Of a stretch of 64,000 nucleotides of DNA, positions 2,660-30,119 are shown piece after piece. A program made the translations under genes and the position numbers. The notes below the pieces were generated by a model that saw only the letters and a list, made by a program, of their open reading frames with translations, had not been told where the DNA came from and did not search any database. This DNA comes from Pseudomonadales bacterium (GTDB lineage Bacteria; Pseudomonadota; Gammaproteobacteria; Pseudomonadales; IMCC2047): positions 3,251,012 through 3,315,011 of the forward strand of contig OZ246007.1 in the NCBI GenBank assembly GCA_965230515.1, read 5' to 3'. Position 1 is the stretch's first letter. Every line of letters starts with the position of its first letter.

Positions 2660-3017
2660 CATCCGATCAAGGCGAAAAAACTTTCTGCTATTAACCACCA
2701 TGGCCGTGTTGCTGACAGCACTGGTGGGGTATCTCCTGATGCATCGATTACAAACGGATTCCGTGCAATCCGTCCAACAAAGTATCGATACCTGGCGGAC
2801 GGCGCTAACAGCCATGCGCTGGATAGTGATCGCGGTCGTTGCCCTTGGCTGGAATCATCTGGTTGGGTGGCTGGCTGATGCAAAAATCCTGAGCCGGGCC
2901 AAAGCAAACCGACTAACAGGCTTACGCTTGCGCGTCGTCACTTGGCTGGTTTTGCTTGAATGGGTGCTAGGGCAGGGTGTGTGGGTCAATGTCATTGGCT
3001 TGATGGTTAGAGCTTGA
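2649..3017 (+). CDS. small integral membrane protein of the ICE transfer region
   Basis: 122 aa with hydrophobic helices (LLLTTMAVLLTALVGYLL; WIVIAVVALGW; VVTWLVLLEWVLG). Overlaps the end of the upstream gene. Alternative start at ATG 2700. Confidence 0.4.
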   Translation: MFNNIRSRRKNFLLLTTMAVLLTALVGYLLMHRLQTDSVQSVQQSIDTWRTALTAMRWIVIAVVALGWNHLVGWLADAKILSRAKANRLTGLRLRVVTWLVLLEWVLGQGVWVNVIGLMVRA

Positions 3018-3033
3018 TCATTGGAGCAAGGCA

Positions 3034-4599
3034 ATGAGTGTCGATAGCTATCTGGAGCTCTTTACTTCCCTTTTTGGATGGACCTTCTACGGCATTCTGT
3101 GGGATGTGCTGGTCAGTACCGGCATCGTCTATCTCCCGTTTCTGGGGATCCTGATCGACAACTGGCGCGAACCCGCGCAGGGTGGTGAAGTGGGCCATGC
3201 CAGCGGTCTTTCACTGCGGCGCATGGAGATCGAGCTGTTCATTGCACTACTGGTAGTGGTGCTGGCCGGGCAACCCGCTGTCCTCACGCCCCTCAATGCA
3301 GGGACCTTGGCCTATTCGCCACCGCCGACCTTGCTGGATCCAATACCCGCCACCGCGACAGTCGCAGCTCCCCAGAGCACCTATGGCACGACCGGGTTCA
3401 CGGGTTCTGCTGCAACCGTCAATGTGCCGGTGTGGTGGTACGGTGTCATCGCACTCAGTTCTGGCCTGAATCACGCCATTGTCGCAGGCCTGCCAACGGT
3501 GGCGGATATGCGCACGTTTGAGCAGCAAGCACGCCTGGCCACCATTGCCGATCCGCGCCTGCGGCAGGAAGTGAGTGATTTCTTCAGCCAGTGTTACATT
3601 CCGGCGCGTTCCAAATACCAGGCAGAGCGACCAAACACCGCGGCCATCAATGGCATTCTCACCACCTACGGTACTGATGACCCCGATTGGATGGGCTCTC
3701 ACGTCTATCGTGATATAGCGGGCTATTACGATACGCTACGCCCAGCCAACCAAATCAGTGGCTGGGCTTACAACGCGGCCAGGGATACGGAATACGATTC
3801 GACTACTCCGCCAGCCTGGGGTAAACCTTACTGCAAACAGTGGTGGGAGGATGGGGCCATCGGCTTACGTGAAAAGCTGATCAATGAGGCGGATGCCACC
3901 TCGGCCGGCTTCTCCGGACTGGTGGTCGCCATCGCGCCGGTACTTGCCAGCGAACAGCAAAATGATGCGGTCGCCAAAACCGTTCTCACCAATGCACCAC
4001 CCTCGTGGTCGAGCAATGAATTGATCGCCAATAATGCATCCGGCTCGGGTTTATTCAATACCGCAGGAAATATTATCAAAGGCGGTCTAGCGACCGGTGG
4101 CGTGGTCACTGCATCGGCTCTGTTCTCCGTGACCATGACCGCCGTGCTTCAATCGCTGCCCATGGTGCAGGGCATTATGCTTTTGGGTATCTACGCGCTG
4201 CTGCCGCTGGTGGTGATACTGTCCCGGTATTCCATCACTATGATGGTGGTGGGAGGCATGGCCATCTTCACCATCAAGTTCTGGACAGTGCTCTGGTACC
4301 TGGCCATGTGGGTGGATCAGAACCTGATTTTATCCATGTACCCGGATGTGAATGTGTTCCTGCAGATCTTTGCTAACCCTGGCGAACACGATGCCAAACG
4401 CATGCTGCTGAATATGATCACCACCAGCCTTTATCTGGGGCTGCCGCTGCTGTGGAGTGGAATGATGGCGTGGGCGGGGGTAAAAGTAGGGCGATCGCTT
4501 GATCATTCTACTAATCCATTGATTAGGCCAGCAAACGACGCAGGTCAGAAAGGTGGGACATTAGGAAAGGCTGCGATAGGTAAGGGGGTCAAGAAATAG
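3034..4599 (+). CDS. conjugal transfer protein with TraG N-terminal domain (TraG_N-like)
   Basis: 521-aa polytopic membrane protein with an N-terminal TM pair, a large soluble middle and a C-terminal TM bundle. It sits in the position that TraG_N proteins occupy in this ICE family. Confidence 0.65.
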   Translation: MSVDSYLELFTSLFGWTFYGILWDVLVSTGIVYLPFLGILIDNWREPAQGGEVGHASGLSLRRMEIELFIALLVVVLAGQPAVLTPLNAGTLAYSPPPTLLDPIPATATVAAPQSTYGTTGFTGSAATVNVPVWWYGVIALSSGLNHAIVAGLPTVADMRTFEQQARLATIADPRLRQEVSDFFSQCYIPARSKYQAERPNTAAINGILTTYGTDDPDWMGSHVYRDIAGYYDTLRPANQISGWAYNAARDTEYDSTTPPAWGKPYCKQWWEDGAIGLREKLINEADATSAGFSGLVVAIAPVLASEQQNDAVAKTVLTNAPPSWSSNELIANNASGSGLFNTAGNIIKGGLATGGVVTASALFSVTMTAVLQSLPMVQGIMLLGIYALLPLVVILSRYSITMMVVGGMAIFTIKFWTVLWYLAMWVDQNLILSMYPDVNVFLQIFANPGEHDAKRMLLNMITTSLYLGLPLLWSGMMAWAGVKVGRSLDHSTNPLIRPANDAGQKGGTLGKAAIGKGVKK

Positions 4600-5890: not shown

Positions 5891-8800
5891 TTAAGAAGCC
5901 GCAATATCCTCGTTATTTCCAACAAGGTTTTTTTGTTTGCGATAAGCCATGCGGTATAAGCCTGGTAGTACCAACAGCGTTAATAGTGTGGAGGATATAA
6001 TTCCCCCTATCACCACTGTCGCTAGTGGGCGCTGAACTTCTGCGCCGGTGCTGGTGTTAAGTGCCATCGGCAGAAAACCCAGTGCGGCAACCAGAGCGAC
6101 CATCAGTATTGGCCTTAACCGCAGCATCGCACCCTGTCGAATAGAGGTATCGATATCATCGCCTTGATTCAATCTATCTCTAAACGCGGAAACCATCATG
6201 ACGCCCGTCAGCACTGAGACTCCGCACAGTGTAATAAAACCAACGCCTGCGGTGATGGAGAGTGGGATATCTCGTAGCCATAGTGCGATAACGCCGCCGG
6301 TTAATGCCAAGGGCACGCCACTAAAAACCAGCGCCGCATCCTTGGCCGAACCAAAGGTCATCATCAGCAGGGCGAAAATCATGACTAATGTGATAGGTAC
6401 TAACAGGCTTAAACGCTCAGAAGCCGATTGCAACTGTTCAAATGTGCCGCCGAAATCCAGCCAATACCCTGGAGGTAAGGCAACCTGCTGCTCAATCTGT
6501 GTTTGCACATCGGCCACAAAGCTACCCAAATCACGCCCTCGTACATTGGCGCTCACCACCAGTCGACGCTTGCCATTTTCTCGGGAAATCTGATTCGGTC
6601 CTGGTGCAAGAGTGAGTGTTGCCACTTCACTGAGGGGGACGTAACCACCTTGCGGTAATGGAACTGGTAAGCGCTCAAGTGCACGCAAATCATTGCGGAT
6701 TTCCTCTGCCACTCTGACCACAATGGTGAAACGTCGATCTCCTTCAAATATCAGGCCTGCTTCCTCGCCGCCTGTTGCCGCCGCAATAATATCTTGCACA
6801 TCAGCGACATTGAGACCATAGCGATATAAAGCAGGGCGATTGGCTTCGATTGACAGGATGGGCAATCCGGAAACCTGCTCTACTTTAACGCCTTCCGCAC
6901 CTTCAATACCATTGAGAACGGCGGCAATCTCTGTGCCGGATTTCAGTAACTGATCGAGATCATCTCCATAAACTTTAACGCCCAGATCCGATCTAACACC
7001 GGAGATAAGTTCATTAAAACGAAGCTGGATCGGTTGGCTAATTTCGAAGGCATTACCAGGGATCAGTGCCAGTTTTTCCTGAATATCTTCCAGTAATTGC
7101 GCTTTGGATTTATCAGGGTTCGGCCAGTCTTTGTGGTCTTTTAACATTACATAACCGTCAGAGATATTGGGCCCCATGGGGTCACTGGCCACCTCTGCGG
7201 TGCCCACTCGCGAAAAGTAGGTTTTCACTTCGGGAATTTCCAGTACCGCACGTTCCAATTGAAACTGCATATCTAGCGATTGTGTAAGGCTGGTGCCGGG
7301 AATACGCAAAGCCTGAATGGCAATATCTCCCTCGTCCAGGTTTGGAATAAATTCAGCTCCCATTCTTGTAGCAAGTCCGCCAATGGCTATCACAAACAGC
7401 ACAGCCCCTGCGAGTACAGCTAGGCGAAACTTAAGTGCCCAGGCCAAGATGGGGGTGTACGCACGTTTTGATTGGCGAACAATAAGGTTGTCTTTTTCCT
7501 TAATATGACCGCTCAGTAAAAGTGCCACGGCTGCGGGAACAAAGGTGAGTGACAACACCAGTGCCGATAAAAGTGCCATAATCACCGCCATGGCCATAGG
7601 GGTAAACATTTTCCCCTCTACCCCGGTGAGCGCCAGGATGGGTATGTTAACTAGAATTACCACCAGAACACTGATTAAACTGGGGGTGAAGACCTCACGC
7701 GTTGCGGCGAACACCGTTTGAAAACGTTCGTCCAACTTCAGCGTTCGACCGAGTTGGTGCTGTCGGCCAGCCAATCTGAGAATACAGTTTTCCACAATGA
7801 TCACTGCGCCATCGACAATAAGACCAAAATCCAGTGCCCCCAAACTCATTAAGTTGGCACTGACCTTGGTTTGAACCATGCCTGTCATGAGCATCAGCAT
7901 GGATAGCGGAATAACCATCGCGGTAAGCAAGGCGGCCCGCACATTGCCAAGCATCACCAACAAAACGACGACCACTAATACCGCACCTTCAAGTAGGTTC
8001 TTCTGCACGGTAGCAATGGTCTTATCAACCAGTATGGTTCGGTCATACACTGGCTCGGCGATAACACCTTCCGGTAGTGTTTTGTTAATCTCAACCAGCT
8101 TGGCGGAAACAGCCTCTGAAACGCTGCGGCTATTGCCGCCCAGCAGCATGACGGCTGTGCCGAGGACAGTCTCTTCACCATCAAGGGTCGCAGCGCCAGT
8201 TCGAAGCTGTTTGCCAAAACTAACCTTAGCTACATCGGCTACAGTTATCGGAATACCGTCTTTATGGGCGACTATGACCCGTTGGATTGCAGCGATATCT
8301 GCCACTTGTCCCGGCGCACGGATCAGGTATTGCTCGCCGTTTTTCTCGATATAGCCAGCGCCGACATTGGCATTATTTTTTTCTACAGCGTCGACAATGT
8401 CATCAAAGGTCAGCTCAACTGCCAACAGTTGAGCGGGGTCAGGGGTGATATGAAATTCTTTTTCAAAGCCGCCGATGGTATTAATCTCGGTTACCCCTGG
8501 CACTAATCGTAGTTGAGGACGGATCACCCAGTCTTGCAGTGTACGCAATGCCGTGGCGTCGTATTTTTCACCATTGGCTTGTCGGGCATCGTCGTCTGCA
8601 TGTACCGCGTAGTGAAAAATCTCTCCGAGACCGGTTGCAACAGGCCCCATCACGGGCTCAATGCCTGATGGCATGTCACTTTTAGCCTGCTGCAGCCTTT
8701 CATTAATTAGGTTTCGTGCAAAGTAGATGTCCGTTCCCTTTTTAAATATGACCGTTACTTGTGAGAGTGCGTATCGTGATAGAGAGCGGGTACTTTCGAC

Positions 8801-9034
8801 GTAGGGCAAACCTGTGATCGCAAGCTCGACCAAGTAGGTGATACGTTGCTCCACTTCCAGCGGCGAATAGCCGGGCGCTTCAGTATTAATCTGCACCTGT
8901 ACGTTGGTGATGTCTGGAACGGCGTCGATGGGCAGTTTTTGGTAATTCCAAACACCGAGTGCGCCGACAACGAGCACAAAAAACATCACCAGCCAACGAC
9001 TGGCGATGGAAAATTGAATCAGTTTATCGATCAT
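5891..9034 (-). CDS. czcA: heavy-metal RND efflux pump, CzcA type (Co/Zn/Cd)
   Basis: 1047 aa with 12-TM RND architecture. The N-terminus MIDKLIQFSI..RWLV and FIPNLDEGDIAIQALRIPGTSLTQS are characteristic of the CzcA rather than the CusA subgroup. Confidence 0.92.
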   Translation of the reverse strand: MIDKLIQFSIASRWLVMFFVLVVGALGVWNYQKLPIDAVPDITNVQVQINTEAPGYSPLEVEQRITYLVELAITGLPYVESTRSLSRYALSQVTVIFKKGTDIYFARNLINERLQQAKSDMPSGIEPVMGPVATGLGEIFHYAVHADDDARQANGEKYDATALRTLQDWVIRPQLRLVPGVTEINTIGGFEKEFHITPDPAQLLAVELTFDDIVDAVEKNNANVGAGYIEKNGEQYLIRAPGQVADIAAIQRVIVAHKDGIPITVADVAKVSFGKQLRTGAATLDGEETVLGTAVMLLGGNSRSVSEAVSAKLVEINKTLPEGVIAEPVYDRTILVDKTIATVQKNLLEGAVLVVVVLLVMLGNVRAALLTAMVIPLSMLMLMTGMVQTKVSANLMSLGALDFGLIVDGAVIIVENCILRLAGRQHQLGRTLKLDERFQTVFAATREVFTPSLISVLVVILVNIPILALTGVEGKMFTPMAMAVIMALLSALVLSLTFVPAAVALLLSGHIKEKDNLIVRQSKRAYTPILAWALKFRLAVLAGAVLFVIAIGGLATRMGAEFIPNLDEGDIAIQALRIPGTSLTQSLDMQFQLERAVLEIPEVKTYFSRVGTAEVASDPMGPNISDGYVMLKDHKDWPNPDKSKAQLLEDIQEKLALIPGNAFEISQPIQLRFNELISGVRSDLGVKVYGDDLDQLLKSGTEIAAVLNGIEGAEGVKVEQVSGLPILSIEANRPALYRYGLNVADVQDIIAAATGGEEAGLIFEGDRRFTIVVRVAEEIRNDLRALERLPVPLPQGGYVPLSEVATLTLAPGPNQISRENGKRRLVVSANVRGRDLGSFVADVQTQIEQQVALPPGYWLDFGGTFEQLQSASERLSLLVPITLVMIFALLMMTFGSAKDAALVFSGVPLALTGGVIALWLRDIPLSITAGVGFITLCGVSVLTGVMMVSAFRDRLNQGDDIDTSIRQGAMLRLRPILMVALVAALGFLPMALNTSTGAEVQRPLATVVIGGIISSTLLTLLVLPGLYRMAYRKQKNLVGNNEDIAAS

Positions 9035-9124
9035 AGTGTGGCCCTTTTATGGTCTCGCACAACTAACTTACCTAGTGCTGATGGCAAACAATGACGCGTA
9101 TTCAACGTATTCGGGTGAATGCGG

Positions 9125-10060
9125 TTAATGGCCATGTTCAGCATCCTCTTTGCCCATCTCTGATTTCAGAACAAAGCTGTTTTTCGAGACATAGGTTTCG
9201 TCGACGTCCAGCCCTGCCAATACTTCGGTTGACTCGCCATCGGTGTGCCCCAAGGTAACTGGGCGCGGTTCAAAGCCTTCTTCTCCTTGAACAAAAACAA
9301 CATGTTCTCCTTCTACAAGCTGTACCGCTTCGTTATGAATAACCAATGGGGCGGCCGTTTCAGACAGGGTAATTTCAGCATTCACAAAAAGCCCTGGTTT
9401 CCACAAATTGTCTGTGTTGTTCATCAAAACCCGTGCAATAGTGGCTTGGTTGTTGCTATTCCCTAATGGAGCGATGTAGATAATCTGACCTTCGCCAGTG
9501 ATAGGGTTGTTGGCGTTTTTGATACGAACCGTTTGACCTATCTGCGCCTTGGCCACGTCTTTGGGAAACAGTGAGAGGTCGACCCAAACGGTGGAGAAAT
9601 CTTCAACAACAAAGAGAACTCGATCGGCAGTTTGTTCGCCAATATTGGCATGACGTTGAGTGATCACACCGTTAAGTGATGAAACAACAGAATAGGCTTT
9701 CAAGCTTTCATTGGCTTCAACCGTGACTAGCGTTTCACCTTTACGAACCTGGTCGCCAATTTTCTTGTTGACCGAGCGAATGACGCCATCAAAGCGGGCG
9801 CTGACCGACTGTATTTGTTCTGCGTTGCTGGTAATAACACCATACACGGGTAGCGTTTCTCGAATATTTCCGGCACCAACACGAGAGAGGCCAATACCTG
9901 CATGCTTGATTTGTTCCTGGGTGAGCTCGATGTGGCCTTCTTCGTGCTCTTCTTCATCGCCATGACCGGTTTCAGCGAATGCCAGAGTGGACATAAAACA
10001 GAATGTGAGATAATAAATAAACTTGATGGCGGGTGATGTATTTACGTTATTTGATTTCAT
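9125..10060 (-). CDS. czcB: RND periplasmic adaptor (CzcB-like) with His-rich termini
   Basis: 311 aa with a signal peptide, GHGDEEEHEEGH near the N-terminus and EDAEHGH at the C-terminus. Barrel-sandwich hybrid-like core. Overlaps czcC by 4 nt. Confidence 0.85.
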   Translation of the reverse strand: MKSNNVNTSPAIKFIYYLTFCFMSTLAFAETGHGDEEEHEEGHIELTQEQIKHAGIGLSRVGAGNIRETLPVYGVITSNAEQIQSVSARFDGVIRSVNKKIGDQVRKGETLVTVEANESLKAYSVVSSLNGVITQRHANIGEQTADRVLFVVEDFSTVWVDLSLFPKDVAKAQIGQTVRIKNANNPITGEGQIIYIAPLGNSNNQATIARVLMNNTDNLWKPGLFVNAEITLSETAAPLVIHNEAVQLVEGEHVVFVQGEEGFEPRPVTLGHTDGESTEVLAGLDVDETYVSKNSFVLKSEMGKEDAEHGH

Positions 10061-11466
10061 TGTGCTGATCCTGGTAATTCGGTTGATTCACCATATCGCG
10101 TGGCGGACAAAGGTTCTGCTGTGAGCTGTTCGATTTCGGCGCCATACGTTAATGCGGATGAGGCGGATTCGATCAGAGTGCGTTTGGCGCCTAGCAATTC
10201 CTGTCTGGCGGAAACGTATTCCAGGTAACCGTAACGGCCACGCTGATACGCTGTCTGTATTTCTTCGAGCGCTTCTTCTAGCGCAGGAATAATGGTGGTT
10301 TGGAGTTCCTTCGCGGTGAGAATGGCCTGTTTTCTATTGTGGAATGCCCGAAATAATTGCGTATGCATGTTGAGTAGCGCCACTTCCTTTCGAACGAAGA
10401 TTTCGTTGCGTTGGGCAAGTGCAGTAGAGACAGCGCCAGAGTTTCTTTTCGATGAAAAGAGCGGCATGCTAAAACCGGCGACCAGGGCTGAATTGTCGCT
10501 TTCCTGAAAACGGCGTACACCGACCGACCAGCTGATATCAGCCCTTGATTGAGTTTTGGCAAGACGCACTTCCGCCTCTTTGAGTCGCTCTTCAGCAGCA
10601 AAGACCTGGATAGCCGGGTTCTTCTCCATTTTGGCATAGAGCCTTTCAAAGTCGACATCCGTACCAAAGTGAAACAAATCACCGTCAATGGCGGAAAATT
10701 TCGGCGAAGTTTCTCCCCAAAGTGCCGCGAGTGACACTTTCAGATAAGCGAGTTGCCGTTGAGTGGAGAGCAGTGTGAGTTGTGCTTGCGAGGCCGAGGC
10801 TTGCGCGCGTTTTACTTCTGCATCTGGTGTCGCGCCTGCGTTAGCACGCTCTTTCACGATATTTAGAGTCTGGCTGGCAAGTTCATTTGCTTCTTTAGCC
10901 AGGGAAACCCGCTCTTGTGCGGCTAGTGCATCCACATAGCGCCGAGTAACTTCACCCAGTAACGCCAACGATTCCACCTGCCTCTGCGCATCGAGAACCG
11001 AGCGAGCGTTAGAAACGATGCCCCTGCGGGCAGCGCGTTTATCGCCCATTTCCAGTACAGAAGAGAGCGAAACGGTGAGTTCTACGCCACCAAAACCGCT
11101 GAGTTCATCGGAGCCAGAGAAGTTCTCAGCTTCCAGGCCGAGTTCATAAGCTGGTTTCAAGTTTGCTGTTTCCAACTGTCCAGCCAGGGCTGTGTTGCGA
11201 AAGTCAAAAACCTTAAGGGAAGGATTCCGCTCTAGAGCACGCTTAAGTGCGGTGTTGAGTGTGAGTGTATTGTCTGTGGCCTCAGCATGAGCAAAAGAGA
11301 GTTGTCCGCCGAAAATCAGACCGATAAATATCAGTTTTCTAAAGCTGATTCGTTTAAATTTTGCGTTTGTTATAGGCGCAGAATTGGGTGGTGCAGTAGC
11401 TGCTATCCAATTAAAGATGGATAAGCTACTCAACAGTAAAGTAGCGACAATATTTCGCGTTTGCAT
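10057..11466 (-). CDS. czcC: TolC-family outer membrane factor (CzcC-like)
   Basis: 469 aa with a two-repeat coiled-coil-rich OMF pattern, immediately upstream of and overlapping czcB. The N-terminal start choice is uncertain because there are two hydrophobic segments. Confidence 0.82.
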   Translation of the reverse strand: MQTRNIVATLLLSSLSIFNWIAATAPPNSAPITNAKFKRISFRKLIFIGLIFGGQLSFAHAEATDNTLTLNTALKRALERNPSLKVFDFRNTALAGQLETANLKPAYELGLEAENFSGSDELSGFGGVELTVSLSSVLEMGDKRAARRGIVSNARSVLDAQRQVESLALLGEVTRRYVDALAAQERVSLAKEANELASQTLNIVKERANAGATPDAEVKRAQASASQAQLTLLSTQRQLAYLKVSLAALWGETSPKFSAIDGDLFHFGTDVDFERLYAKMEKNPAIQVFAAEERLKEAEVRLAKTQSRADISWSVGVRRFQESDNSALVAGFSMPLFSSKRNSGAVSTALAQRNEIFVRKEVALLNMHTQLFRAFHNRKQAILTAKELQTTIIPALEEALEEIQTAYQRGRYGYLEYVSARQELLGAKRTLIESASSALTYGAEIEQLTAEPLSATRYGESTELPGSAQ

Positions 11467-11568: not shown

Positions 11569-11889
11569 TTATGCGTTTGGAGGAGGAGTCGGCGGTGCCT
11601 GTGCGAAGTTAAGGATATGTGGCTGGTAAAAGGCAAACTGTTGATCGGACATATCGCATTTCAGAATAGTGATATTACCCTCAATGCTGCCGGTATGACC
11701 GTGACAGCAATGTGAGCAGTGGTTGCTATCAGCATCTGAATCTATTGACAGTGATTCATCGTTATCCAGTACATGCGCGTGATCGTCTCCGTGCGTGTGT
11801 TCACCGCCGCCCAAAGAATCGATAGCACCTTCGATACCCATAAAGAGTAGCGAAAATATAAATAGATAAAGAATGGAATATCTCTGCAT
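11569..11889 (-). CDS. CzcI/DUF2946-like small secreted Cys/His-rich protein (copy 1)
   Basis: Leader MQRYSILYLFIFSLLFMGIEGAIDS, a His/Asp-rich linker, the cluster HCSHCCHGH and the tail APPTPPPNA. The start was chosen by alignment with copy 2. Alternative starts at 11898 and 11931. Confidence 0.55.
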   Translation of the reverse strand: MQRYSILYLFIFSLLFMGIEGAIDSLGGGEHTHGDDHAHVLDNDESLSIDSDADSNHCSHCCHGHTGSIEGNITILKCDMSDQQFAFYQPHILNFAQAPPTPPPNA

Positions 11890-11973
11890 AGAACCCATAC
11901 TAGGCCATCCTGTTTTGATGGGAAAACACAATTAATACCTGGTAGTTCAGACTATATTGCCCGATCAGATATC

Positions 11974-12405
11974 TTAACGCGCAATGTTTGATTCGTGCTT
12001 CGGAGGTGAAGCTGCCTCTAACTGGTTTTGATGATAAGCGATCTTAATTACGGCATTTGTAGGAATAGCTTTAGGAACGCTCGCCGAGAATCGTACTCCT
12101 CCTTTGCGAAATGCTCGTTTTGAGGGTGACGGGGGAAAATAGTTGGTTGTAGTCTCATACATCAAATCGCCTTCATCCGACCAAACTGCGATATCTATAT
12201 GCCCTTTTGGCAGTCCGTATCGCGAGCTTGCAGTCAATCGTCCAGATACAATTGCATCGGATTTGTTTTCTTCGAATTGTAATCGGCTAAAATGCCAGCG
12301 CTGATAATCAGTTTTGATAATTTTTAACAGCGGGGAATGATTGTTCGCTGACGCAGGCGCAATAAATGTCGTACATAAAAGGAATGCGAGAATAGTAAAT
12401 CTCAT
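11974..12405 (-). CDS. unknown secreted protein, paralogue of 15449-15874
   Basis: 143 aa with signal peptide MRFTILAFLLCTTFIAPASA. The beta-rich-looking core GHIDIAVWSDEGDLMYE...VIKIAYH matches the second copy by eye. Confidence 0.6.
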   Translation of the reverse strand: MRFTILAFLLCTTFIAPASANNHSPLLKIIKTDYQRWHFSRLQFEENKSDAIVSGRLTASSRYGLPKGHIDIAVWSDEGDLMYETTTNYFPPSPSKRAFRKGGVRFSASVPKAIPTNAVIKIAYHQNQLEAASPPKHESNIAR

Positions 12406-12480
12406 ATTGTTTCACCTAATTTGAAATAGCTAAGTAGTTGCCACGATACTAAATCGTAGCTCTTTCTAAGTTATTAAAAA

Positions 12481-12843
12481 TCAGGCTATAGGCGGGCGAA
12501 ACAAAGAAAATACTGGGGCTATTGGCAAATTGGATCGGTAGTCCGGTTGCAGCAGTTTCGTATGAGTCACACATAGCTGCATAAGATTTTCAGTTAGGTA
12601 GCAATGACATCCATGATTATGACAGTGTAGAAAACTTCCACACGAATCTTCCTGGTTTAAAGGGTCAGTAACACTAGGGTTGTCATCCAAATCACCCGTA
12701 AAGCTATTGCTGAAATTGCTATCCAAAATATGTGTGTAGCTTCCCCCGCGATGCAGTTCTCCAGCAGCAGAATCGACAGCGCTTTCTATACCCGTAAAGA
12801 GCAGAGAAAAGATAAACAGGTAGCAGGTAAACGATTTGAACAT
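12481..12843 (-). CDS. CzcI/DUF2946-like small secreted Cys/His-rich protein (copy 2)
   Basis: 120 aa with leader MFKSFTCYLFIFSLLFTGIESAVDS (near identical to copy 1), cluster CGSFLHCHNHGCHC and tail FSLFRPPIA. Lies 11 nt after the CDF gene. Confidence 0.55.
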   Translation of the reverse strand: MFKSFTCYLFIFSLLFTGIESAVDSAAGELHRGGSYTHILDSNFSNSFTGDLDDNPSVTDPLNQEDSCGSFLHCHNHGCHCYLTENLMQLCVTHTKLLQPDYRSNLPIAPVFSLFRPPIA

Positions 12844-12854
12844 AATTAATCAGT

Positions 12855-13493
12855 CTATACGACTTCCAAGTGTTCTGCACGTATTTCGCTAAATGCCAAG
12901 CGTATGACGTGAATGGCCGCACTAAAATTGAGGCTGGCTATGATGGCCGCGACGGCAAGGTCGGGCCATCGCGAAGACGTTGCAAAGACACCCGCTGCAG
13001 CGATCATGACCGCGATATTGCCAATCGCATCGTTGCGGCTGCACAGCCAGATAGAACGCATATTGCTATCACCTGCACGGTAGCGGTAAAGCAACACCGT
13101 AACAGCAACATTGACGATGAGTGCGAGTATGGCCACTGTGCCCATAACCGACGCTTCAGGAGCACTGCCGGTCAGCGCGCGATAAATAGCATTGCCAATC
13201 ACCCATAGGCCAAAAGCAGCCATGGTCGCGCCCTTAATCAGCGAGGCGCGGGCGCGTAAATGTAGCGCCATTCCCAGTACAAACAGGCTAATCGCGTAGT
13301 TGGCTGAGTCACCAAAAAAATCCAACGCATCGGCTTGCAGGGAGATCGAATCACCAATCTGACTGGCGATGATCTCAACCAAAAACATAGCTGCATTCGC
13401 GATAAGTGCAATCCATAGTACGCGGCGAAATACAGGATCAACGTTATTGTCTGCCGTTACGGTATCAGATGGACAGTTTGTACACCCTGGCAT
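12855..13493 (-). CDS. short cation diffusion facilitator-like transporter (TM domain only)
   Basis: 212 aa with six hydrophobic helices and CDF-type metal-site helices SLQADALDFFGDSANY and RNDAIGNIAVMIAA. There is no cytoplasmic C-terminal domain. The start overlaps the arsR-family stop. Confidence 0.75.
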   Translation of the reverse strand: MPGCTNCPSDTVTADNNVDPVFRRVLWIALIANAAMFLVEIIASQIGDSISLQADALDFFGDSANYAISLFVLGMALHLRARASLIKGATMAAFGLWVIGNAIYRALTGSAPEASVMGTVAILALIVNVAVTVLLYRYRAGDSNMRSIWLCSRNDAIGNIAVMIAAAGVFATSSRWPDLAVAAIIASLNFSAAIHVIRLAFSEIRAEHLEVV

Positions 13494-13831
13494 TAGTCGT
13501 CCTCCTCGGATTGATCCGGCTCGCCGATATGCGCCACCATATCCTCAATCACGCATTGGATATGTTCATCTGCTGCGACGTAGAAAACCTGTTTACCACG
13601 ACGTTCTGAACGGGCGATTCTGGCGGCTCGCAACAAACGCAAATGGTGGCTGACAAGGGATTGCGATAGCTCTAGCTTCTCGGCGATGTCCGATACGCTA
13701 ATTGGAGCGTGCAAGCAGGTTAGAATAATGCGCAGCCTGCTGGTATCCCCCATAAGGCGGAATAAATCGGCTAACTGCGATATCTCCTCCTCTGAACCTA
13801 TCTTTTTAAGCGGGTGTCTTTTTGTCTTCAT
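13493..13831 (-). CDS. SmtB/ArsR-family metal-responsive repressor (alpha5-site type)
   Basis: Start chosen at MKTKRHPLKK. The wHTH is VSDIAEKLELSQSLVSHHLRLLR. ADEHIQCVIEDMVAHIGE fits the DxHx10Hx2E alpha5 metal site of SmtB/CzrA-type sensors. Confidence 0.85.
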   Translation of the reverse strand: MKTKRHPLKKIGSEEEISQLADLFRLMGDTSRLRIILTCLHAPISVSDIAEKLELSQSLVSHHLRLLRAARIARSERRGKQVFYVAADEHIQCVIEDMVAHIGEPDQSEEDD

Positions 13832-13836
13832 ATTGA

Positions 13837-13892
13837 TGAATAAACATATAAATATATATTCATATGTTTGCACGATATACTAATTATGTCAA
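13837..13892 (-). promoter_or_regulatory. candidate promoter and SmtB-type operator of the minus-strand operon
   Basis: Interleaved inverted repeats TGAATA(13837-42)/TATTCA(13857-62) and AAACATAT(13842-49)/ATATGTTT(13862-69). On the minus strand TTGACA (13892-13887) is followed after 17 nt by AAACAT, which overlaps the repeat. Confidence 0.45.
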
Positions 13893-13926
13893 CTCCGAGT
13901 CTTTTCCAATATGAAATGAGCCGGAA

Positions 13927-14585
13927 GTGGGGGGCGTATTTCCATTATCAAATGAGCCTGAAATAATCACTGAGTTTGTTAATGATCGGAGGATGAAAAC
14001 GACCATAAGCTTAGAACAACTAATAACCATTGAAGCCGTTAGCCAATTTCTTGAGGGTACACAGGCAGTCGCCTTTAACTTCGCCATGTACAAACAGGAT
14101 CGGTATAGCTGGATATAAAAAGACTTTGATAAAGTTTCAGTGTCGGCAACTGGGTAAGACGGATAAAGGGATCCTCACACGTTATCTGATGAAAGTCACG
14201 GGCTACTCCCGCGCCCAAATCAAACGTCTGATACAGCGGTACCGCCAAACCGACAAGCTGTCTTGCTCAAGACGGCTTGCCGTAATCGCTTTAAGCGCCT
14301 TTACACAGATGTAGACAGATGCAGATATACGTTTATTGGCAGCCATGGATGAACGCCACAACCAATCCAGCGGGCCGGTACTCAAAAAGCTCTGCGAACG
14401 CGCCTATCAGCGGTTTGGCCAATCCCAGTATCAGCGTCTGGCCGGGATCTCCATCTCTCACCTGTATAACCCACACCAAACCACCACCTACCAGTGGCAA
14501 CGCTATACCTTGACCACAACACGCCGCAAGGGGGTGTCATCAGTCCGCTACTGGTGAACCTGTTTACGCGACGAACGTATTCCAC
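13927..14585 (+). pseudogene. degraded DDE (rve-type) transposase, N-terminal fragments only
   Basis: Three consecutive frames carry ...SLEQLITIEAVSQFLEGTQAVAF..., ...KTLIKFQCRQLGKTDKGILTRYLMKVTGYSRAQIKRLIQRYRQT... and ...AAMDERHNQSSGPVLKKLCERAYQRFGQSQYQRLAGISISHLYN.... This matches remembered IS transposase N-termini. There are at least 2 frameshifts and the catalytic core is missing. Confidence 0.6.
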
Positions 14586-14947
14586 CAGTTCTGAGGAAAA
14601 TAAAAGCTAAGCATTATGACTTGGATCTAGAAATTGTACGCCGAGTACTGAGAAATCTTTTTGACTTCGAAATACTAGAGAGAGACAAGCACAATAATTA
14701 TAAGTTGGGGCTCAATTTCATAGCATGGCAGAGTGATAACTCGTGAACATTTTCAAATTTTGTCAATTAAGAGGTGCCCTGATATTTAACTTGGATTGAT
14801 GCGCGTATGATAAGAAAGGTGGTTAAAAAATGTAATGAAAACTATATACTGCTATAATAGCTCCGATGAAGCGTTATTAAAATTGAACTTAATGCTAATT
14901 CGCAAATCGAAGCGGTAGATATTATTGAGTATGGCGATTTTATTTAG

Positions 14948-15367
14948 GTGAAGTTAAAAAACACAGCGATAATAATGGTTTTTATGTTGTTCTGCCAACA
15001 GGCGGGAGCAGTTGCTGTGAACCTTGTAAAGACAATTCCTTTTGAAAATGAAACTGAGTTGGCTGTGCAGACCGATGCTGCCTGTCATGGCAACTCTTTG
15101 ACAGAGAGCGCTTCCGACGTCAACGAACTTACACTTTTACATAGTCACAGCAATACCGCTCAGAAGGGTGAATCACAGTACTCAGCTTTAACCGAAAATT
15201 GTTGCGATGTAAGTTGTCAATGTTGTGTTAGTGGTTGCCAGTCAGTGTTAGGTGGTGGATCAGACCAAAATCAGCGTACGTCACCCACAGGCCCAGAAGA
15301 TAATTATTCATTTGTGGTTCCGAAACTGCTGCCCAGCTCATTTTTCCGCCCCCCCATTATTTCTTAA
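14948..15367 (+). CDS. CzcI/DUF2946-like small secreted Cys-rich protein (copy 3)
   Basis: 139 aa with a GTG start, leader KLKNTAIIMVFMLFCQQAGAVA, cluster CCDVSCQCCVSGC and tail SSFFRPPIIS. Confidence 0.5.
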   Translation: MKLKNTAIIMVFMLFCQQAGAVAVNLVKTIPFENETELAVQTDAACHGNSLTESASDVNELTLLHSHSNTAQKGESQYSALTENCCDVSCQCCVSGCQSVLGGGSDQNQRTSPTGPEDNYSFVVPKLLPSSFFRPPIIS

Positions 15368-15448
15368 TCCCTAGGGCAATTGCGCCCAACGAATTATTAG
15401 ATCTGTTGTTGCCAGCAGGTTTCTATTCCCGTATTTGAGGATTATGAG

Positions 15449-15874
15449 ATGAAAACTTCCTATATAAAAATTGGTTTTATCGCACTTTCCATGAGCGCCT
15501 TTTCTAACGTTGCTTTTGCCAATCATCCATTGGATACAAGTATCAAAATTGATCGTGATAGCATACGAGGAGTTCGCTTGGGTCAAGTTCAATTACGTCA
15601 TTTAGCTGATGGCGAGTATCGGCTGAGTGGTGAGGTCAGGCGACGTCAAAATAACCCGGTACCGATGGGGCATTTTGACTTGATGGTGTCTGATCAAAGT
15701 GATCATGTGATTTTTGAGGATTCAGAATTTTACTGGCCACGAATCGTAAATCGTCGATACCACCACCCTTCAAAATTTGTTTTTACTTTACCGGAATCGA
15801 TCGCTACCCAAGCTGAATTACAGCTGAGTTTCCATAAAGACAAGCTGGCTAAACGGCCTAAGCCAAACCACTGA
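15449..15874 (+). CDS. unknown secreted protein, paralogue of 11974-12405
   Basis: 141 aa with signal peptide MKTSYIKIGFIALSMSAFSNVAFA, GAGGA-like SD upstream and core GHFDLMVSDQSDHVIFE...ELQLSFH. Confidence 0.6.
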   Translation: MKTSYIKIGFIALSMSAFSNVAFANHPLDTSIKIDRDSIRGVRLGQVQLRHLADGEYRLSGEVRRRQNNPVPMGHFDLMVSDQSDHVIFEDSEFYWPRIVNRRYHHPSKFVFTLPESIATQAELQLSFHKDKLAKRPKPNH

Positions 15875-15939: not shown

Positions 15940-16449
15940 ATGATCAATAAAACCATATTCCCATTTATGCTCGCCATACTGCTATCGGCAGCTACAAATA
16001 TTGTGAGTGCGGAATCAGCTATTGCCAAATCTGCCGTTGATCACGCCAAAAATAAAATAATGATGGTATACAAAAACCCAAAATGTGGTTGTTGTGATAA
16101 ATGGGTAAAGCATATCAACGACTTCGGGCTTTTGAGCCAAGTTGTTAGTGGTTCAAATGTAGCTACGATCAAATCCAATTTTGGCATTGAGCCACGTTAT
16201 CGCTCTTGCCATACCACGATTGCTGATGGCTACGCTTTTGAGGGTCATATCCCAGCGCACATTATTCAACAATTTCTTATTGAGAAACCCAAAGATGTTG
16301 TTGGTTTATCGGTACCCGGTATGCCGGCGGGTAGTCCAGGCATGGAAATGGGCGATCGGCACGATGACTATGATGTGCTGTTGTTAAAAAAAGATGGTAG
16401 CTCAGAGGTTTATGCTCATATAAGTGAGACACATAAGGCAGATCATTGA
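15940..16449 (+). CDS. copG: DUF411 / CopG-like periplasmic copper-resistance protein
   Basis: 169 aa with a signal peptide, the CxCC motif KCGCCDKW, conserved CHTT and the Met-rich loop PGMPAGSPGME typical of DUF411 proteins. Confidence 0.8.
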   Translation: MINKTIFPFMLAILLSAATNIVSAESAIAKSAVDHAKNKIMMVYKNPKCGCCDKWVKHINDFGLLSQVVSGSNVATIKSNFGIEPRYRSCHTTIADGYAFEGHIPAHIIQQFLIEKPKDVVGLSVPGMPAGSPGMEMGDRHDDYDVLLLKKDGSSEVYAHISETHKADH

Positions 16450-16476
16450 ATCTTTATCAACCAGGAGAACATACCT

Positions 16477-17022
16477 ATGTACAAATTCATTATTACGTTA
16501 ACAGCATCGACAGTTATCGCTTTGTCGGCCTTTGCCGAAGGAAAGCATAATGATAACGTGAGTGACCATAACAGCCATGCTAAATCTTCCCATGAAGGTC
16601 ATGGTGCCCATCTGCAAGCACATAATCATGAAACAAAAAAGGGAGCAGTGGGGTACCCTGCCAAACCTTCCAACTCTCAGCGCTCCATTGATGTCAGCTT
16701 GAGCGATAATATGCGGATTAGCTTTTCTGAGGATCTTACCGAGCTCAAATCAGGAACGGTGATTAACTTTGTGGTGACCAACGAAGGTGAAATTTCCCAT
16801 GAGTTTTCTATCGGCAACCAGGCTGAGCAGAAAGCACATGCAAAAATGATGCGGCAAATGCCAGGTATGGTGCACAACGATGGTAATACAGTTACGTTGG
16901 CACCAGGTGAAACCAAACGTTTGGCGTGGCACTTTGTCGGTGATGATCAGGTTGTATTTTCCTGTAATATCCCCGGCCATTTCGAGGCGGGCATGTTTCG
17001 AATAGCTTCGTTGAAACTGTAG
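16477..17022 (+). CDS. periplasmic cupredoxin (type-1 copper protein) with a His-rich N-terminal region
   Basis: 181 aa with a signal peptide, a His-rich stretch (SDHNSHAKSSHEGHGAHLQAHNHE) and the type-1 Cu ligand pattern HEF...CNIPGHFEAGM. Confidence 0.75.
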   Translation: MYKFIITLTASTVIALSAFAEGKHNDNVSDHNSHAKSSHEGHGAHLQAHNHETKKGAVGYPAKPSNSQRSIDVSLSDNMRISFSEDLTELKSGTVINFVVTNEGEISHEFSIGNQAEQKAHAKMMRQMPGMVHNDGNTVTLAPGETKRLAWHFVGDDQVVFSCNIPGHFEAGMFRIASLKL

Positions 17023-17452: not shown

Positions 17453-17860
17453 ATGGTTCGTTTAGTGGGTACAGTATTAGTTATCTTGGGGTTGATTTTT
17501 CAACCGCTGATGGCTGCTATGCCTATTGAAATGGCCGATCACGGGACGGATACCATGGCAACTATTAATGTTGATGAGACAGCCCTTGTGGATGGGCATA
17601 CATACATACATGATCAAAAAGTCGGCAATAAAGCAGCTGAAGAACCCTGTCATGGGGGCGCTGCGGAAGACGGATCAACATCTGAAACTCATGACGGTTG
17701 CATCACTGTTGGAAACTGCTGTGGTGTTTGCGTGGCTTCAATTAGTCATAACCTGATTATTTCCTCTAATCCACAAATTAACATGCATATTGTTGAAAGA
17801 GCCGAACATCTTGTTCTTGGTATTCTTTCATCTATCTATCACCCTCCTAAACACGCCTAA
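17453..17860 (+). CDS. CzcI/DUF2946-like small secreted Cys/His protein (copy 4, most divergent)
   Basis: 135 aa. GGAG SD upstream, leader MVRLVGTVLVILGLIFQPLMAA, a His/Asp-rich linker, CHGG...CITVGNCCGVCV and tail SSIYHPPKHA. Confidence 0.45.
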   Translation: MVRLVGTVLVILGLIFQPLMAAMPIEMADHGTDTMATINVDETALVDGHTYIHDQKVGNKAAEEPCHGGAAEDGSTSETHDGCITVGNCCGVCVASISHNLIISSNPQINMHIVERAEHLVLGILSSIYHPPKHA

Positions 17861-20039: not shown

Positions 20040-20480
20040 ATGAGGAAGATCATGGATAGTTATAGCAGTTTAGAATTGCGAGATGATCACGCAGAAACCT
20101 ATTTAGAAAATGATTGCTCTCGGAGGTTAAGAAAGATTGTCAAGTATGGTGCTGTAATTATTTTAATAGGACTTTTAGCCGGGTGCTCTGGGAATCAAAT
20201 GCTACATGAATATTTCTATAAAGGACAAGTCATCGGGATCGAAGGCGATGAAATTGTTCTCTGTATAGGCAGCCGTGATGGTGCTGAGACGGGTCAAAAT
20301 TTGAGCGTTTATAGGTATATATATGAAGGCTCAATTACGGAAGGAGAAGAAGCTTACGGTAAAGCATATATCGGTCAAATTACGGTTAATAAGATTGTCA
20401 ATACTCATTTTGCTAGAGCGAAAATTATAAGTGGAAAGATTAAAAAATATGATGTGGCTGAGCCAGTGAGAGACGATTAA
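20040..20480 (+). CDS. hypothetical lipoprotein
   Basis: 146 aa with lipobox LLAGC. The real start is uncertain, because a GGAGG at 20122-20126 suggests a later non-ATG start. No family recognised. Confidence 0.45.
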   Translation: MRKIMDSYSSLELRDDHAETYLENDCSRRLRKIVKYGAVIILIGLLAGCSGNQMLHEYFYKGQVIGIEGDEIVLCIGSRDGAETGQNLSVYRYIYEGSITEGEEAYGKAYIGQITVNKIVNTHFARAKIISGKIKKYDVAEPVRDD

Positions 20481-26907: not shown

Positions 26908-26957
26908 TTGGATATGCGGGATAGTCCTAGGTGTGAGTCCGAAAATGAGAGGTGTTT

Positions 26958-27362
26958 ATGAGAGTTAATCAATTAGCCGCCGCATTGGATGTTAGCGCCG
27001 ACACTGTCCGTTATTACACCCGGATAGGCATGTTGGCGCCGAAAAAGAATCCTAATAATGGCTACAAAGAGTATACGGCTGCAGACAGGCAAAGATTAGG
27101 CTTTATTCTGGCGGCCCGGCAACTGGGATTTTCAGTGAAGGATATAGACATTATTTTAGCGCAAGCCAAAACCGGGAAAACAGCCTGCCCTCTGGTCAGA
27201 GAGTTGATTGAAGAACGGTTAAAGGAAACTGAGAAAAAGTTTGCTGGAACCAAGGTGCTCAGAGCACGCATGCAGGCAGCTGTAGAAGACTGGCAATCAA
27301 AGCCCGATAAAGCGCCGACCGGGCATATGATTTGCCACTTGATTGAAAGCTTTTCTAGCTAA
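26958..27362 (+). CDS. MerR-family metal-responsive transcriptional activator (CueR/CadR-like)
   Basis: MRVNQLAAALDVSADTVRYYTRIGML is a classic MerR HTH. Followed by a coiled-coil dimerisation helix and a C-terminal ligand region GHMICH, plus a Cys in TACPLV. Confidence 0.85.
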   Translation: MRVNQLAAALDVSADTVRYYTRIGMLAPKKNPNNGYKEYTAADRQRLGFILAARQLGFSVKDIDIILAQAKTGKTACPLVRELIEERLKETEKKFAGTKVLRARMQAAVEDWQSKPDKAPTGHMICHLIESFSS

Positions 27363-27422
27363 AGCAGGGGATAAGACAGTGAATAGTTATCAATTAATCC
27401 AATCAGGAGAAAGGGCCTCGTT

Positions 27423-29729: not shown

Positions 29730-29741
29730 GAGGCTCTCGTT

Positions 29742-30095
29742 ATGATGATCATTAATATTATCGGATTGTTACTGATAGCACTAATCGTCTGGTGGTTTTG
29801 GCTCTATAAGCCCCGTGAAGTCGCTGTCAGCGAGGGAGCGATCACGGTGACGGTTGAAGACGGTACCTATCAGCCGTCGCGGATAAAACTGGCGGCCGGC
29901 CAGCCGGCGACTATCCGGTTTATGCGTAAAGATGCCTCGCCCTGCGCCGGCACAGTGTTATTTTCCGATTTTGATATCAGTGAGGAGTTGCCATTGAATC
30001 AATTTAAATCCATCGTTTTGCCCGCGATGGAGAAAGGTGAGTATGCCTTCAGCTGCCAGATGCAAATGTATCGTGGCACGTTGCTGGTGGAGTAA
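29742..30095 (+). CDS. membrane-anchored cupredoxin-like protein
   Basis: 117 aa with an N-terminal TM helix, then the beta-sandwich-like ITVTVEDGTYQPSRIKLAAGQPATIRF..C..FSCQMQMYRGTLLVE. This type is commonly found after copA. Confidence 0.6.
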   Translation: MMIINIIGLLLIALIVWWFWLYKPREVAVSEGAITVTVEDGTYQPSRIKLAAGQPATIRFMRKDASPCAGTVLFSDFDISEELPLNQFKSIVLPAMEKGEYAFSCQMQMYRGTLLVE

Positions 30096-30119
30096 TCCAT
30101 TTTTCAATAGGAGGTTGAT

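Follow-up and report, generated by a model that had tools for sequence, protein, structure and literature searches.

A putative metal-sensing arrest leader upstream of an unannotated periplasmic protein family in heavy-metal efflux and copper-resistance operons

We analysed a 64,000-nucleotide stretch of DNA from a Pseudomonadales bacterium (GenBank assembly GCA_965230515.1, contig OZ246007.1, positions 3,251,012 to 3,315,011 of the forward strand; hereafter the window), in which two small genes, a leader that we call A and a gene for a secreted protein that we call B, stand next to each other in two separate cassettes. The reading that we favour, with moderate confidence, is that A is a cis-acting, metal-sensing arrest leader that gates translation of B, a new periplasmic metal-binding accessory protein. 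The observations that it starts from are the anatomy of the genes, the B family itself, the adjacency and spacing of the pair, predicted RNA helices and a codon bias, and from these we infer stalling, its dependence on metal, metal binding by B and the partners of B.

Two cassettes and their conservation

On the forward strand a CutF-like leader gene of 139 residues (A1; 14948-15367, GTG start) is followed after 81 nucleotides by B1 (15449-15874; 141 residues), a member of an unannotated family of predicted periplasmic beta-sandwich proteins, as found from the list of open reading frames (ORFs), BLASTP and a profile search. On the reverse strand another CutF-like leader gene, A2 (12481-12843; 120 residues), starts 11 nucleotides past the stop codon of a CDF transporter gene and is followed after 75 nucleotides by B2 (11974-12405; 143 residues), which BLASTP places in the same family as B1. 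The initial annotation had described two such pairs with these gaps, and the ORF list bears this out. It had also taken the two proteins of about 140 residues for secreted paralogs, and the pairwise comparison that could have contradicted this gave a significant similarity: B1 and B2 align with 24% identity over 85 residues (E=6e-10), a span that includes the motifs G-H-[IF]-D and [FY]-H, and both proteins begin with what we judge by inspection to be Sec-type signal peptides, with cleavage at AFA|N and ASA|N. On this alignment B1 and B2 are true paralogs. The same annotation spoke of a duplicated cassette, of which the paralogy stands and the local duplication does not. A1 and A2 are barely alignable, their match being confined to the C-terminus (E=0.008), and an identity of just 24% between B1 and B2 rules out a recent or local duplication of the cassette. 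Because both the leaders and the downstream proteins have diverged so far, the two cassettes are, as far as these alignments tell, anciently diverged subfamilies that were brought together on one island.

The pair recurs in other genomes. We collected related loci (numbered L001 onwards) by a genome scan, which gave 36, and by contig look-ups; the scan used a B2-type peptide pattern. Among 44 related loci, 40 of the 45 B genes have a Cys/His-rich ORF of 111-144 residues on the same strand 51-99 nucleotides upstream, a figure that covers close subfamilies and not the whole family. These 40 upstream ORFs end in [FL]RPPI[AVI] or NPPPIG, and once start codons had been refined the gap was 75-84 nucleotides in 16 of 19 unique intergenic regions. 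The pairing of A with B is far beyond chance, and the conservation of order and spacing that had been proposed for the two window cassettes thus holds elsewhere. It is extremely improbable that an AT-rich spacer produced the ORFs, or the similarity between them, by chance: A1 does have a GTG start without an obvious Shine-Dalgarno (SD) sequence, and one gene caller picked a shorter version of it of 116 residues, but homologs with conserved motifs occur in dozens of genomes, the N-terminus of A1 is conserved in its ortholog in L001, and E-values of the B profile reach 1e-54.

Most A-B pairs are followed by genes for an outer-membrane factor, a membrane fusion protein and a resistance-nodulation-division (RND) transporter. 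The motif in transmembrane segment 4 (TM4) of the RND protein near B is DFG-DGA-VEN at 9 loci, AIG-DGS-VEN at 10 and AIG-DGA-IEN at 1, and because there are at least three TM4-motif classes the A-B unit is not tied to one pump class. Cassettes of the B1 type stand in copper contexts, in the arrangements A-B-DUF411-CopI (the window), A-B-DUF411-copA-copB (L052), A-B-CopI (L051) and A-B-cusCBA (L001). Elsewhere B stands without A: it immediately precedes copA-copB in Ketobacter (L026, L027 and L029), immediately follows czcA in L045 and L054, comes after an RND gene and a 99-residue ORF in L038, and is found once alone (L048).

The leader genes

A1 has a putative signal peptide (MKLKNTAIIMVFMLFCQQAGAVA), a Cys cluster (CCDVSCQCCVSGC) and the C-terminus FFRPPIIS, and A2 likewise has a putative signal peptide, the cluster HCHNHGCHC and the C-terminus LFRPPIA. 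We read the leader signal peptides by inspection, from a basic n-region, a hydrophobic core and an A-x-A-like site, and the region is kept in L001. Two more leader-like genes lie in the window, both without a B partner. The first, A3 (11569-11898, reverse strand), is a paralog of A2 (E=5e-12) that ends in PPTPPPNA directly upstream of czcC; its longest ORF begins at 11931, and the likely start is an ATG at 11898 or 11889, giving about 106-109 residues. The second, A4 (17453-17860, forward strand; 135 residues), ends in IYHPPKHA and precedes, at a distance of about 190-230 nucleotides, a porin-like gene and then a cytochrome c gene. The island therefore holds four leaders before four different genes.

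The best profile for A1 and A2 is CopL_fam (NF033807), with 22.8 and 16.3 bits; A4 scores 16.9 bits, and all three are below the curated cut-off of 40, while A3 has no CopL_fam match in the NCBIfam scan. None of the four window leaders matches DUF2946 (PF11162) at E<=1, and none matches the CzcI family (NF045614). When 16 relatives of A are considered, CopL_fam matches ten (best E=1.3e-6), DUF2946 five (best E=2e-4) and CzcI four (all E>=0.002). The A genes thus lie below the curated thresholds of the DUF2946, CopL and CzcI models, and on these scores they are distant relatives at most.

Recent work has placed CopL, CzcI and DUF2946 in one "CutF-like" group, whose members are small and exported, combine a Cys/His motif with an arrest-like proline motif at the C-terminus, and act in cis as nascent-chain metal sensors (PMC9973294; PMC9426467; preprint 10.1101/2025.02.05.636593). 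The rule given for the group is a length below 150 residues, a signal peptide, a Pro-Pro pair (PP) within the last 15 residues and a neighbour on the same strand that is mostly less than 100 nucleotides away (PMC9973294). All four window leaders are shorter than 150 residues, from about 106-109 in A3 to 139 in A1, and the four tails given above all have PP within the last 15 residues. The short same-strand gap is present in A1-B1 and A2-B2, and candidate metal ligands are offered by the clusters of A1 and A2 and by those of their relatives, such as DCHHCCHCH. Across 17 leader proteins PP always lies 2-3 residues from the C-terminus, and 36-43 residues always separate the Cys/His cluster from the first Pro, with total lengths of 104-142 residues and an unconserved sequence in between, a ruler that would be analogous to the 45 ± 2 residues of DUF2946 (PMC9426467). 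The label "CzcI-like" used in the initial annotation is loose: the CzcI model gives weak matches to four relatives, the best profile is CopL_fam, and because A has the C-terminal proline motif, which CzcI lacks (PMC9973294), the A genes fit the CutF-like/DUF2946 leader class better than CzcI.

The peptide R-P-P-I is invariant while the codons for Arg (CGC, CGU or CGA), the second Pro (all four codons) and Ile vary. Because it is kept across synonymous codon changes, selection probably acts on R-P-P-I at the level of the peptide. The rest of mature A is poorly conserved: the mean column identity is 31%, and apart from the two Pro only a single Cys column reaches invariance or comes close to it. 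This bears on the possibility that A and B are stable periplasmic proteins acting as a complex, for instance a regulator of the CzcI/CopL type with a partner that presents or receives metal. Such a complex would suit the strict order and adjacency (40 of 45) as well as the signal peptides and candidate metal ligands that both proteins carry. However, a mature protein almost without a conserved core is typical of a leader or a disordered peptide, CutF, the relative that has been studied, undergoes degradation on export and works in cis alone (PMC9973294), B occurs without A in several architectures, and leader-like genes in the window also precede unrelated genes (czcC and the porin-like gene), so that we consider a complex quite unlikely.

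Predicted pairing of the leader 3′ end with the start of the next gene

The final codons of the leader are predicted to base-pair with the SD and start region of the downstream gene, and this holds for the two window pairs as well as for about 20 related loci. For A1-B1 the minimum free energy (MFE) structure joins an anti-SD arm on the forward strand (UUAUUUC U UAAUCC; 15357-15370), which comprises the last three A1 codons, the stop codon and 3 nucleotides beyond, to an arm (GGAUUA U GAGAUGA; 15439-15452, same strand) that includes part of the SD sequence GAGGA (15437-15441) and the AUG at 15449. Positions 15357-15363 pair with 15446-15452 and positions 15365-15370 with 15439-15444, the fold having a free energy of -29.3 kcal/mol (z -3.4) that is equalled by 0 of 200 shuffles. 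The helix is kept in L001 and L052, and in the latter a U-A pair of the window becomes G.U by changes on both sides.

For A2-B2, on the reverse strand, the MFE structure has two anti-SD arms within 12478-12504, namely UUGUUUC in the Leu-Phe-Arg codons (12504-12498) and GCCUGAUUU at the last codon and stop (12486-12478), together with an SD arm (AAAUUAGGUGAAACAA; 12407-12422) just upstream of the AUG at 12405. The z-score of the fold is -2.3 for the window and -3.5 for L009, which has an identical sequence, and cross-pairing is 9.4 compared to 2.0 in shuffles. A similar picture is found for A3: a perfect helix of 10 base pairs (z -5.9) is predicted between its last codon plus stop (GCAUAAAUCA; 11574-11565) and the start of czcC (UGAUUUAUGC; 11472-11463). 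For A4 the MFE structure pairs CCUC with GGAG of the porin-like gene over about 230 nucleotides, which is weak evidence.

We compared the 19 unique A-B regions, which are related to one another and form about 12 lineages, with dinucleotide shuffles. In every region the pair probabilities joining the 3′ end of A to the ribosome-binding site (RBS) of B sum to 5-14, where the shuffles give about 2 ± 3; three further loci beyond these have the same pairing. In most lineages the anti-SD consists of the arrest-motif codons themselves, CGU CCU CC pairing with GAGGAU, whereas in the window cassettes it consists of the last codons and the stop codon instead of the RPP codons. The first Pro codon is CCU in 15 of the 19 sequences (about 10 of 12 lineages), compared to 18% CCU among the Pro codons of the same loci, and therefore the segment CCUCC arises, which is complementary to the SD; this bias suggests that selection acts at the level of the RNA too, besides the peptide. 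The anti-SD lies within about 15 nucleotides of the Pro-Pro codons in every lineage and, given what is generally known of ribosome footprints, would fall inside the footprint of a ribosome paused there.

Since RNAalifold returned no consensus structure for the mixed intergenic alignment, we scored a helix of 11 base pairs that was specified by hand, on an alignment labelled "A4" (the alignment, not the leader gene of that name). In this helix 75% of the cells are paired, compared to 36-45% with one arm slid, and five pairs change on both sides, such as one from U-A to C-G that joins the wobble base of the Arg codon to the SD; the covariation score is 0.141 compared to 0.071, a value reached by 1 of 500 shuffles. 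No Rfam family matches anywhere in the window. A scan for promoters and terminators gave no terminator-like site between A and B on the coding strand, with counts no higher than in shuffles, and simple intrinsic attenuation is thus unsupported.

The pairing might instead come from plain translational coupling with no sensing of metal, A itself being a small periplasmic metal-binding protein whose RPPI tail has some other role. Any ribosome crossing the 3′ end of A would open the helix, the z-scores are moderate, and generic RBS occlusion is not significantly above that of leaderless loci. Coupling of this kind leaves three features unexplained, however, namely the spacing of 36-43 residues between the cluster and PP, the retention of R-P-P-I across synonymous codons, and the position of PP, always 2-3 residues from the stop; all three match the rulers of the CruR/CutF arrest peptides, and we regard plain coupling as unlikely.

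The downstream protein family

The initial annotation could place the B proteins in no described family, and this agrees with what we found: searches of Pfam, NCBIfam and the PDB, with single sequences and with profiles, gave nothing above threshold for B. The nearest is DUF3426, which matches B1 with 17.2 bits (E=0.0057), below its gathering score of 27.7, and does not match B2; it matches one of 80 family members. Scanned singly, these 80 members point to no consistent Pfam family, and neither they nor B1 and B2 match CusF (PF11604). Word-indexed homolog searches recovered only 5, 3 and 12 relatives, so that an exhaustive profile search was needed to recover the family. Among 1.84 billion representatives it found 161 B clusters (at 50% identity) at E<=1e-3 and 31 at E<=1e-10. 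All but a few of the listed matches are about 100-175 residues long (range 87-198), and every name given by the sources is "hypothetical protein". B thus appears to be an undescribed and unannotated family, which by its motifs and its predicted fold may be called the "GHxD...FH" periplasmic beta-sandwich.

Members have about 130-160 residues, a signal or lipoprotein signal, and a near-invariant G-H-x-D, a central F and [FY]-H, all of which are carried by B1 (G74-H75-F-D77 and F128-H129, with a C-terminal H141) and by B2 (G68-H69-I-D71 and Y124-H125, with the tail P-K-H137-ESNIAR). Over 162 members, in B1 numbering, conservation is 97% for G61, G74 and H75, 94% for D77, 88% for P97, 98% for F110 and 91% for H129, and the C-terminal column at H141 holds, when present, only His (79) or Cys (31). 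The His-Asp-His triad is whole in 142 of the 162, and of the four members that lack H75 three also lack D77 and H129. Because these residues tend to vanish together, the pattern argues that H75, D77 and H129 form one functional site. The AlphaFold2 model is an all-beta sandwich (mean predicted local distance difference test score 85.7). By the strand order, H75 is at the start of strand 4, Y95/P97 at the end of strand 5 and H129 at the end of strand 7; should the strands run in alternating directions, these residues would lie at the same pole of the sandwich.

Two of the B profiles have a borderline match (E 1.1e-3 and 1.6e-3, 21-22 bits) to residues ~148-237 of a 275-residue "Exported protein" of solved structure (PDB ID: 9ow2, chain A), where the GH is present and the Asp of G-H-x-D is missing; it may be a distant structural relative of B. 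We found no paper on 9ow2.

A different view of B is that of a structural or envelope accessory with no role in metal binding, such as an immunoglobulin (Ig)-like adaptor or a lipoprotein that assembles or anchors tripartite pumps, its His and Asp being structural. Consistent with this, the nearest folds are Ig-like lipoproteins (Cj0090, YajI and DUF1425) and carbohydrate-binding domains, a lipobox-like signal is present in about a quarter of the members (40 of 162), and the neighbouring pumps are of different metal classes. This is difficult to reconcile with a conserved set made up of His, Asp and His and a C-terminal position that is only His or Cys, with the tendency of His, Asp and His to be lost together, and with the occurrence of B next to copA-copB or DUF411/CopI where no RND genes are adjacent, from which it follows that pump assembly is not the sole role. 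We think a purely structural B unlikely as well, to about the same degree as plain coupling. We also considered an enzyme or a Cu,Zn-superoxide-dismutase-like protein; no superoxide dismutase or obvious hydrolase is among the top 50 Foldseek matches of B in the PDB.

Proposed mechanism

In the mechanism that we propose, A would be a leader peptide of the CutF/CruR type that is exported co-translationally, so that its Cys/His cluster would emerge on the periplasmic side of the translocon with the ribosome still at the C-terminal Arg-Pro-Pro-Ile codons. The cluster would then be 36-43 residues behind the peptidyl-transferase centre, and binding of metal to the nascent chain might prolong the Pro-Pro pause. 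The paused ribosome would cover the mRNA segment that is otherwise paired with the SD and start of B, 75-81 nucleotides downstream, and the pause would thereby free the RBS of B, so that B is made when periplasmic metal is high. B would be exported via Sec and bind metal at the candidate site formed by His75, Asp77, His129 and the C-terminal His or Cys, most likely serving as a periplasmic chaperone or buffer for the neighbouring heavy-metal efflux (HME) RND pump or for Cop proteins. In the window another leader, A3, stands immediately before czcC, which suggests that the reach of each leader is limited to the next cistron. The initial annotation had inferred a functional pair from the conserved order, and the conserved pair is indeed real; the functional link is most likely cis-regulatory, via the anti-SD helix, and less likely to be a complex of two proteins, since B also occurs without a leader.

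Several points weigh against this mechanism. A1 and A2 fall under every curated threshold and neither matches DUF2946 or CzcI, the RPP motif of the leaders differs from the RAPP and PPP motifs studied in CruR and CutF, and the CutF motif alone did not stall in a reporter (PMC9973294). For the RNA, the shuffle tests on single sequences are modest, with 0-20 of 100 shuffles reaching the observed value, and the 19 sequences behind the pairing test reduce to some 12 lineages by their relatedness. The helix specified by hand was derived from the very sequences on which it was scored, the RNAalifold consensus was empty, and generic RBS occlusion, at 0.62 with a leader and 0.55 without, does not separate the two kinds of locus (Mann-Whitney p=0.10). 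For B, the candidate metal site comes from conservation, with the clustering of the ligands deduced from strand order only, and the best PDB folds found by Foldseek are generic Ig-like lipoproteins (E>=4e-3), none of them a metalloprotein. Finally, B is found with at least three TM4 classes and with Cop genes, and because it accompanies several pump classes and Cop genes no metal specificity can be assigned to it.

A more far-reaching possibility, which we put forward tentatively and consider doubtful as it stands, is that B represents a novel class of metallochaperone that serves HME-RND pumps, those of the Czc type among them, from the periplasm, with synthesis gated cistron by cistron by a transmembrane arrest-peptide sensor whose Arg-Pro-Pro codons double as the anti-SD, so that a single short stretch of mRNA would specify the stalling peptide and also form the RNA switch. 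To our knowledge no CusF-like partner has been described for the Czc-type divalent-cation pumps.

The analysis names a conserved, wholly unannotated protein family in the heavy-metal efflux and copper-resistance operons of marine Gammaproteobacteria, and this family offers a concrete candidate metal site of four residues for mutation. The favoured reading would extend the CutF/CruR principle, in which a nascent exported peptide is the extracytoplasmic metal sensor, from copper oxidases and TonB transporters to Czc-type operons. If true, it also implies a testable design in which the anti-SD is supplied by the arrest codons CGU CCU CC, and the four leaders before four genes suggest cistron-by-cistron translational control atop the ArsR and MerR regulators. 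Genetics are feasible because a cultured host, Thalassolituus maritimus DSM 24913 (L012, NZ_FTOH01000005.1), carries the A-B-czcCBA form.

Genomic setting

In the window the reverse-strand gene string is headed by genes for an ArsR/SmtB regulator and the CDF transporter (12855-13873), continues with A2, B2 and A3, and then with czcC-, czcB- and czcA-like HME-RND efflux genes (5891-11466), the RND protein having the TM4 motif DFG-DGA-VEN. On the forward strand, A1 and B1 are followed by genes for a DUF411 protein and a CopI-like cupredoxin (15940-17022), a copper context. Between these two divergent clusters lie about 700 base pairs of short broken ORFs with no Pfam match (13900-14600), which could be a decayed mobile-element gene at the junction. 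Further along the forward strand, an ORF at 20040-20480 was considered as a third copy of B and rejected, since the B profile does not match it; it is an unrelated lipoprotein-like ORF of 146 residues with LLAGCSG and no Pfam match, directly upstream of a cusC-like gene, which is the slot of B in other operons. The B profile found no B-like gene in the window besides B1 and B2.

A gene for an ICMT-family membrane protein lies at 30760-31410 (forward strand), preceded at 26952-30470 by genes for a MerR-type regulator, a P1B-type ATPase, a cupredoxin and a P-II-like protein; CzcN and NccN belong to the ICMT family. The island thus joins Czc-, Cus- and Cop-type modules. Just past the metal genes, at 32420-36200 (forward strand), are consecutive genes for a glycosyltransferase-family-3 (thymidine-phosphorylase-like) protein, a phosphoribosyl-pyrophosphate-synthetase-like protein and a beta-CASP protein of metallo-beta-lactamase fold. 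At the other end, conjugative-transfer genes (TraU and TraG_N; 300-4599) immediately precede the metal-resistance cluster, which suggests that an integrative conjugative element, or else a region of plasmid origin, carries the cluster as cargo. There is no tRNA gene in the window, and the plasmid collection PLSDB contains no DNA match to the region and no protein relative of B2.

Some of the related loci deserve separate mention. L001, from the metagenome-assembled genome (MAG) of Gammaproteobacteria bacterium OFTM196 (GCA_021773395.1, JAJFKB010000011.1), is nearly identical to the window and has a third A-B cassette (10001-10426) upstream of cusCBA-like genes, whose B is 87% identical to B1 and has Arg in place of His129. 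In L051, a metagenome contig (1-4217), a B1-type cassette adjoins a CBASS-like cluster with a DncV-like nucleotidyltransferase, a patatin, an E2/ThiF gene and a JAB gene, a neighbourhood that is consistent with location on a mobile island. In L010-L023, the A-B-czcCBA module has 92-99.9% DNA identity over 4-12 kb aligned, in assemblies assigned to separate families and even classes, among them Thalassolituus, Pseudoteredinibacter, Ketobacter, Hahellaceae, Sedimenticolaceae, Immundisolibacteraceae, HTCC5015 and the alphaproteobacterium Sneathiella; such near-identity reflects either recent horizontal spread or the mis-binning of some MAGs.

Comparison with known systems

One of the closest parallels to the proposed arrangement is CutF of Rhodobacter capsulatus (cutFOG), where copper prolongs a stall at PPP and lets a stem-loop that hides the SD of cutO melt (PMC9973294; 10.1101/2025.02.05.636593). 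Like the leaders described here, CutF is small, combines a Cys metal motif with a proline motif at the C-terminus, and is encoded directly upstream of a gene for a periplasmic protein, from which a short intergenic region separates it. Sec export, action in cis, a role of the downstream protein in metal homeostasis and a structure that hides the downstream SD, all found in the CutF system, are predicted or proposed for the present loci. The differences are in the details: the motif is GPPPRL in CutF and [FL]RPPI here, or NPPPIG in some relatives, and CutF has CxxxC where the present leaders have Cys/His-rich clusters such as DCHHCCHCH and CCDVSCQCC. In CutF an intergenic stem-loop is melted by the ribosome helicase, whereas here the predicted anti-SD is within the last codons of the leader, and the gene controlled there encodes a multicopper oxidase rather than an unannotated protein upstream of Czc-type pumps. 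In addition, the window leaders have no significant similarity to the DUF2946 hidden Markov model.

CruR of Bordetella pertussis (Bp2923), the prototype of DUF2946, has the arrangement CXXC-45 aa-RAPP and a 162-nucleotide intergenic region with Rho-dependent termination, and copper relieves the arrest (PMC9426467). Like the A genes it is an upstream ORF, and its export signal, its metal motif and the arrest motif that it has 3 residues before the C-terminus each have a predicted counterpart in A. It differs in that the present loci have RPP, a spacing of 36-43 residues, gaps of 75-84 nucleotides, a predicted helix that would sequester the SD, and no terminator-like site. CopL of Xanthomonas (NF033807) and CzcI of Cupriavidus metallidurans (NF045614) are likewise small Cys/His-rich proteins that are exported, and their genes immediately precede copAB or czcCBA; the window leaders are below both cut-offs, and the C-terminal proline motif that is invariant here is missing from CzcI (PMC9973294). 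In its position, A3 is exactly where CzcI would be, directly before czcC.

A more distant example is SecM-secA. SecM is an exported leader whose C-terminal arrest holds the ribosome over a region that pairs with the downstream SD, and it differs in sensing translocon activity and not a ligand, and in its motif, FxxxxWIxxxxGIRAGP.

For B, we propose a functional analogy with CusF (PF11604) of CusCFBA, a small protein encoded inside an HME-RND operon that binds metal in the periplasm, as B may do. CusF is a beta-barrel with His, Met and Met as ligands, while the candidate ligands of B are His, Asp and His, with the C-terminal His or Cys; the two do not match in sequence, and B is predicted to be an all-beta sandwich with generic Ig-like matches in the PDB. 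The best Foldseek resemblances of B are to Cj0090 (PDB ID: 4gio), YajI (PDB ID: 2jwy) and DUF1425 (PDB ID: 3o0l), with E-values of 4e-3 to 3e-2 and template-modelling scores of 0.33-0.47. The resemblance to these and to DUF3426 is weak, and none of the four has the G-H-x-D or F-H motifs.

Taken together, these comparisons suggest by analogy that the leader belongs to the mechanism class described between 2022 and 2025, and that RPPI, the Cys/His clusters, the Czc context and the overlap of arrest codons with the anti-SD, the last judged from the present loci alone, would be variations on it.

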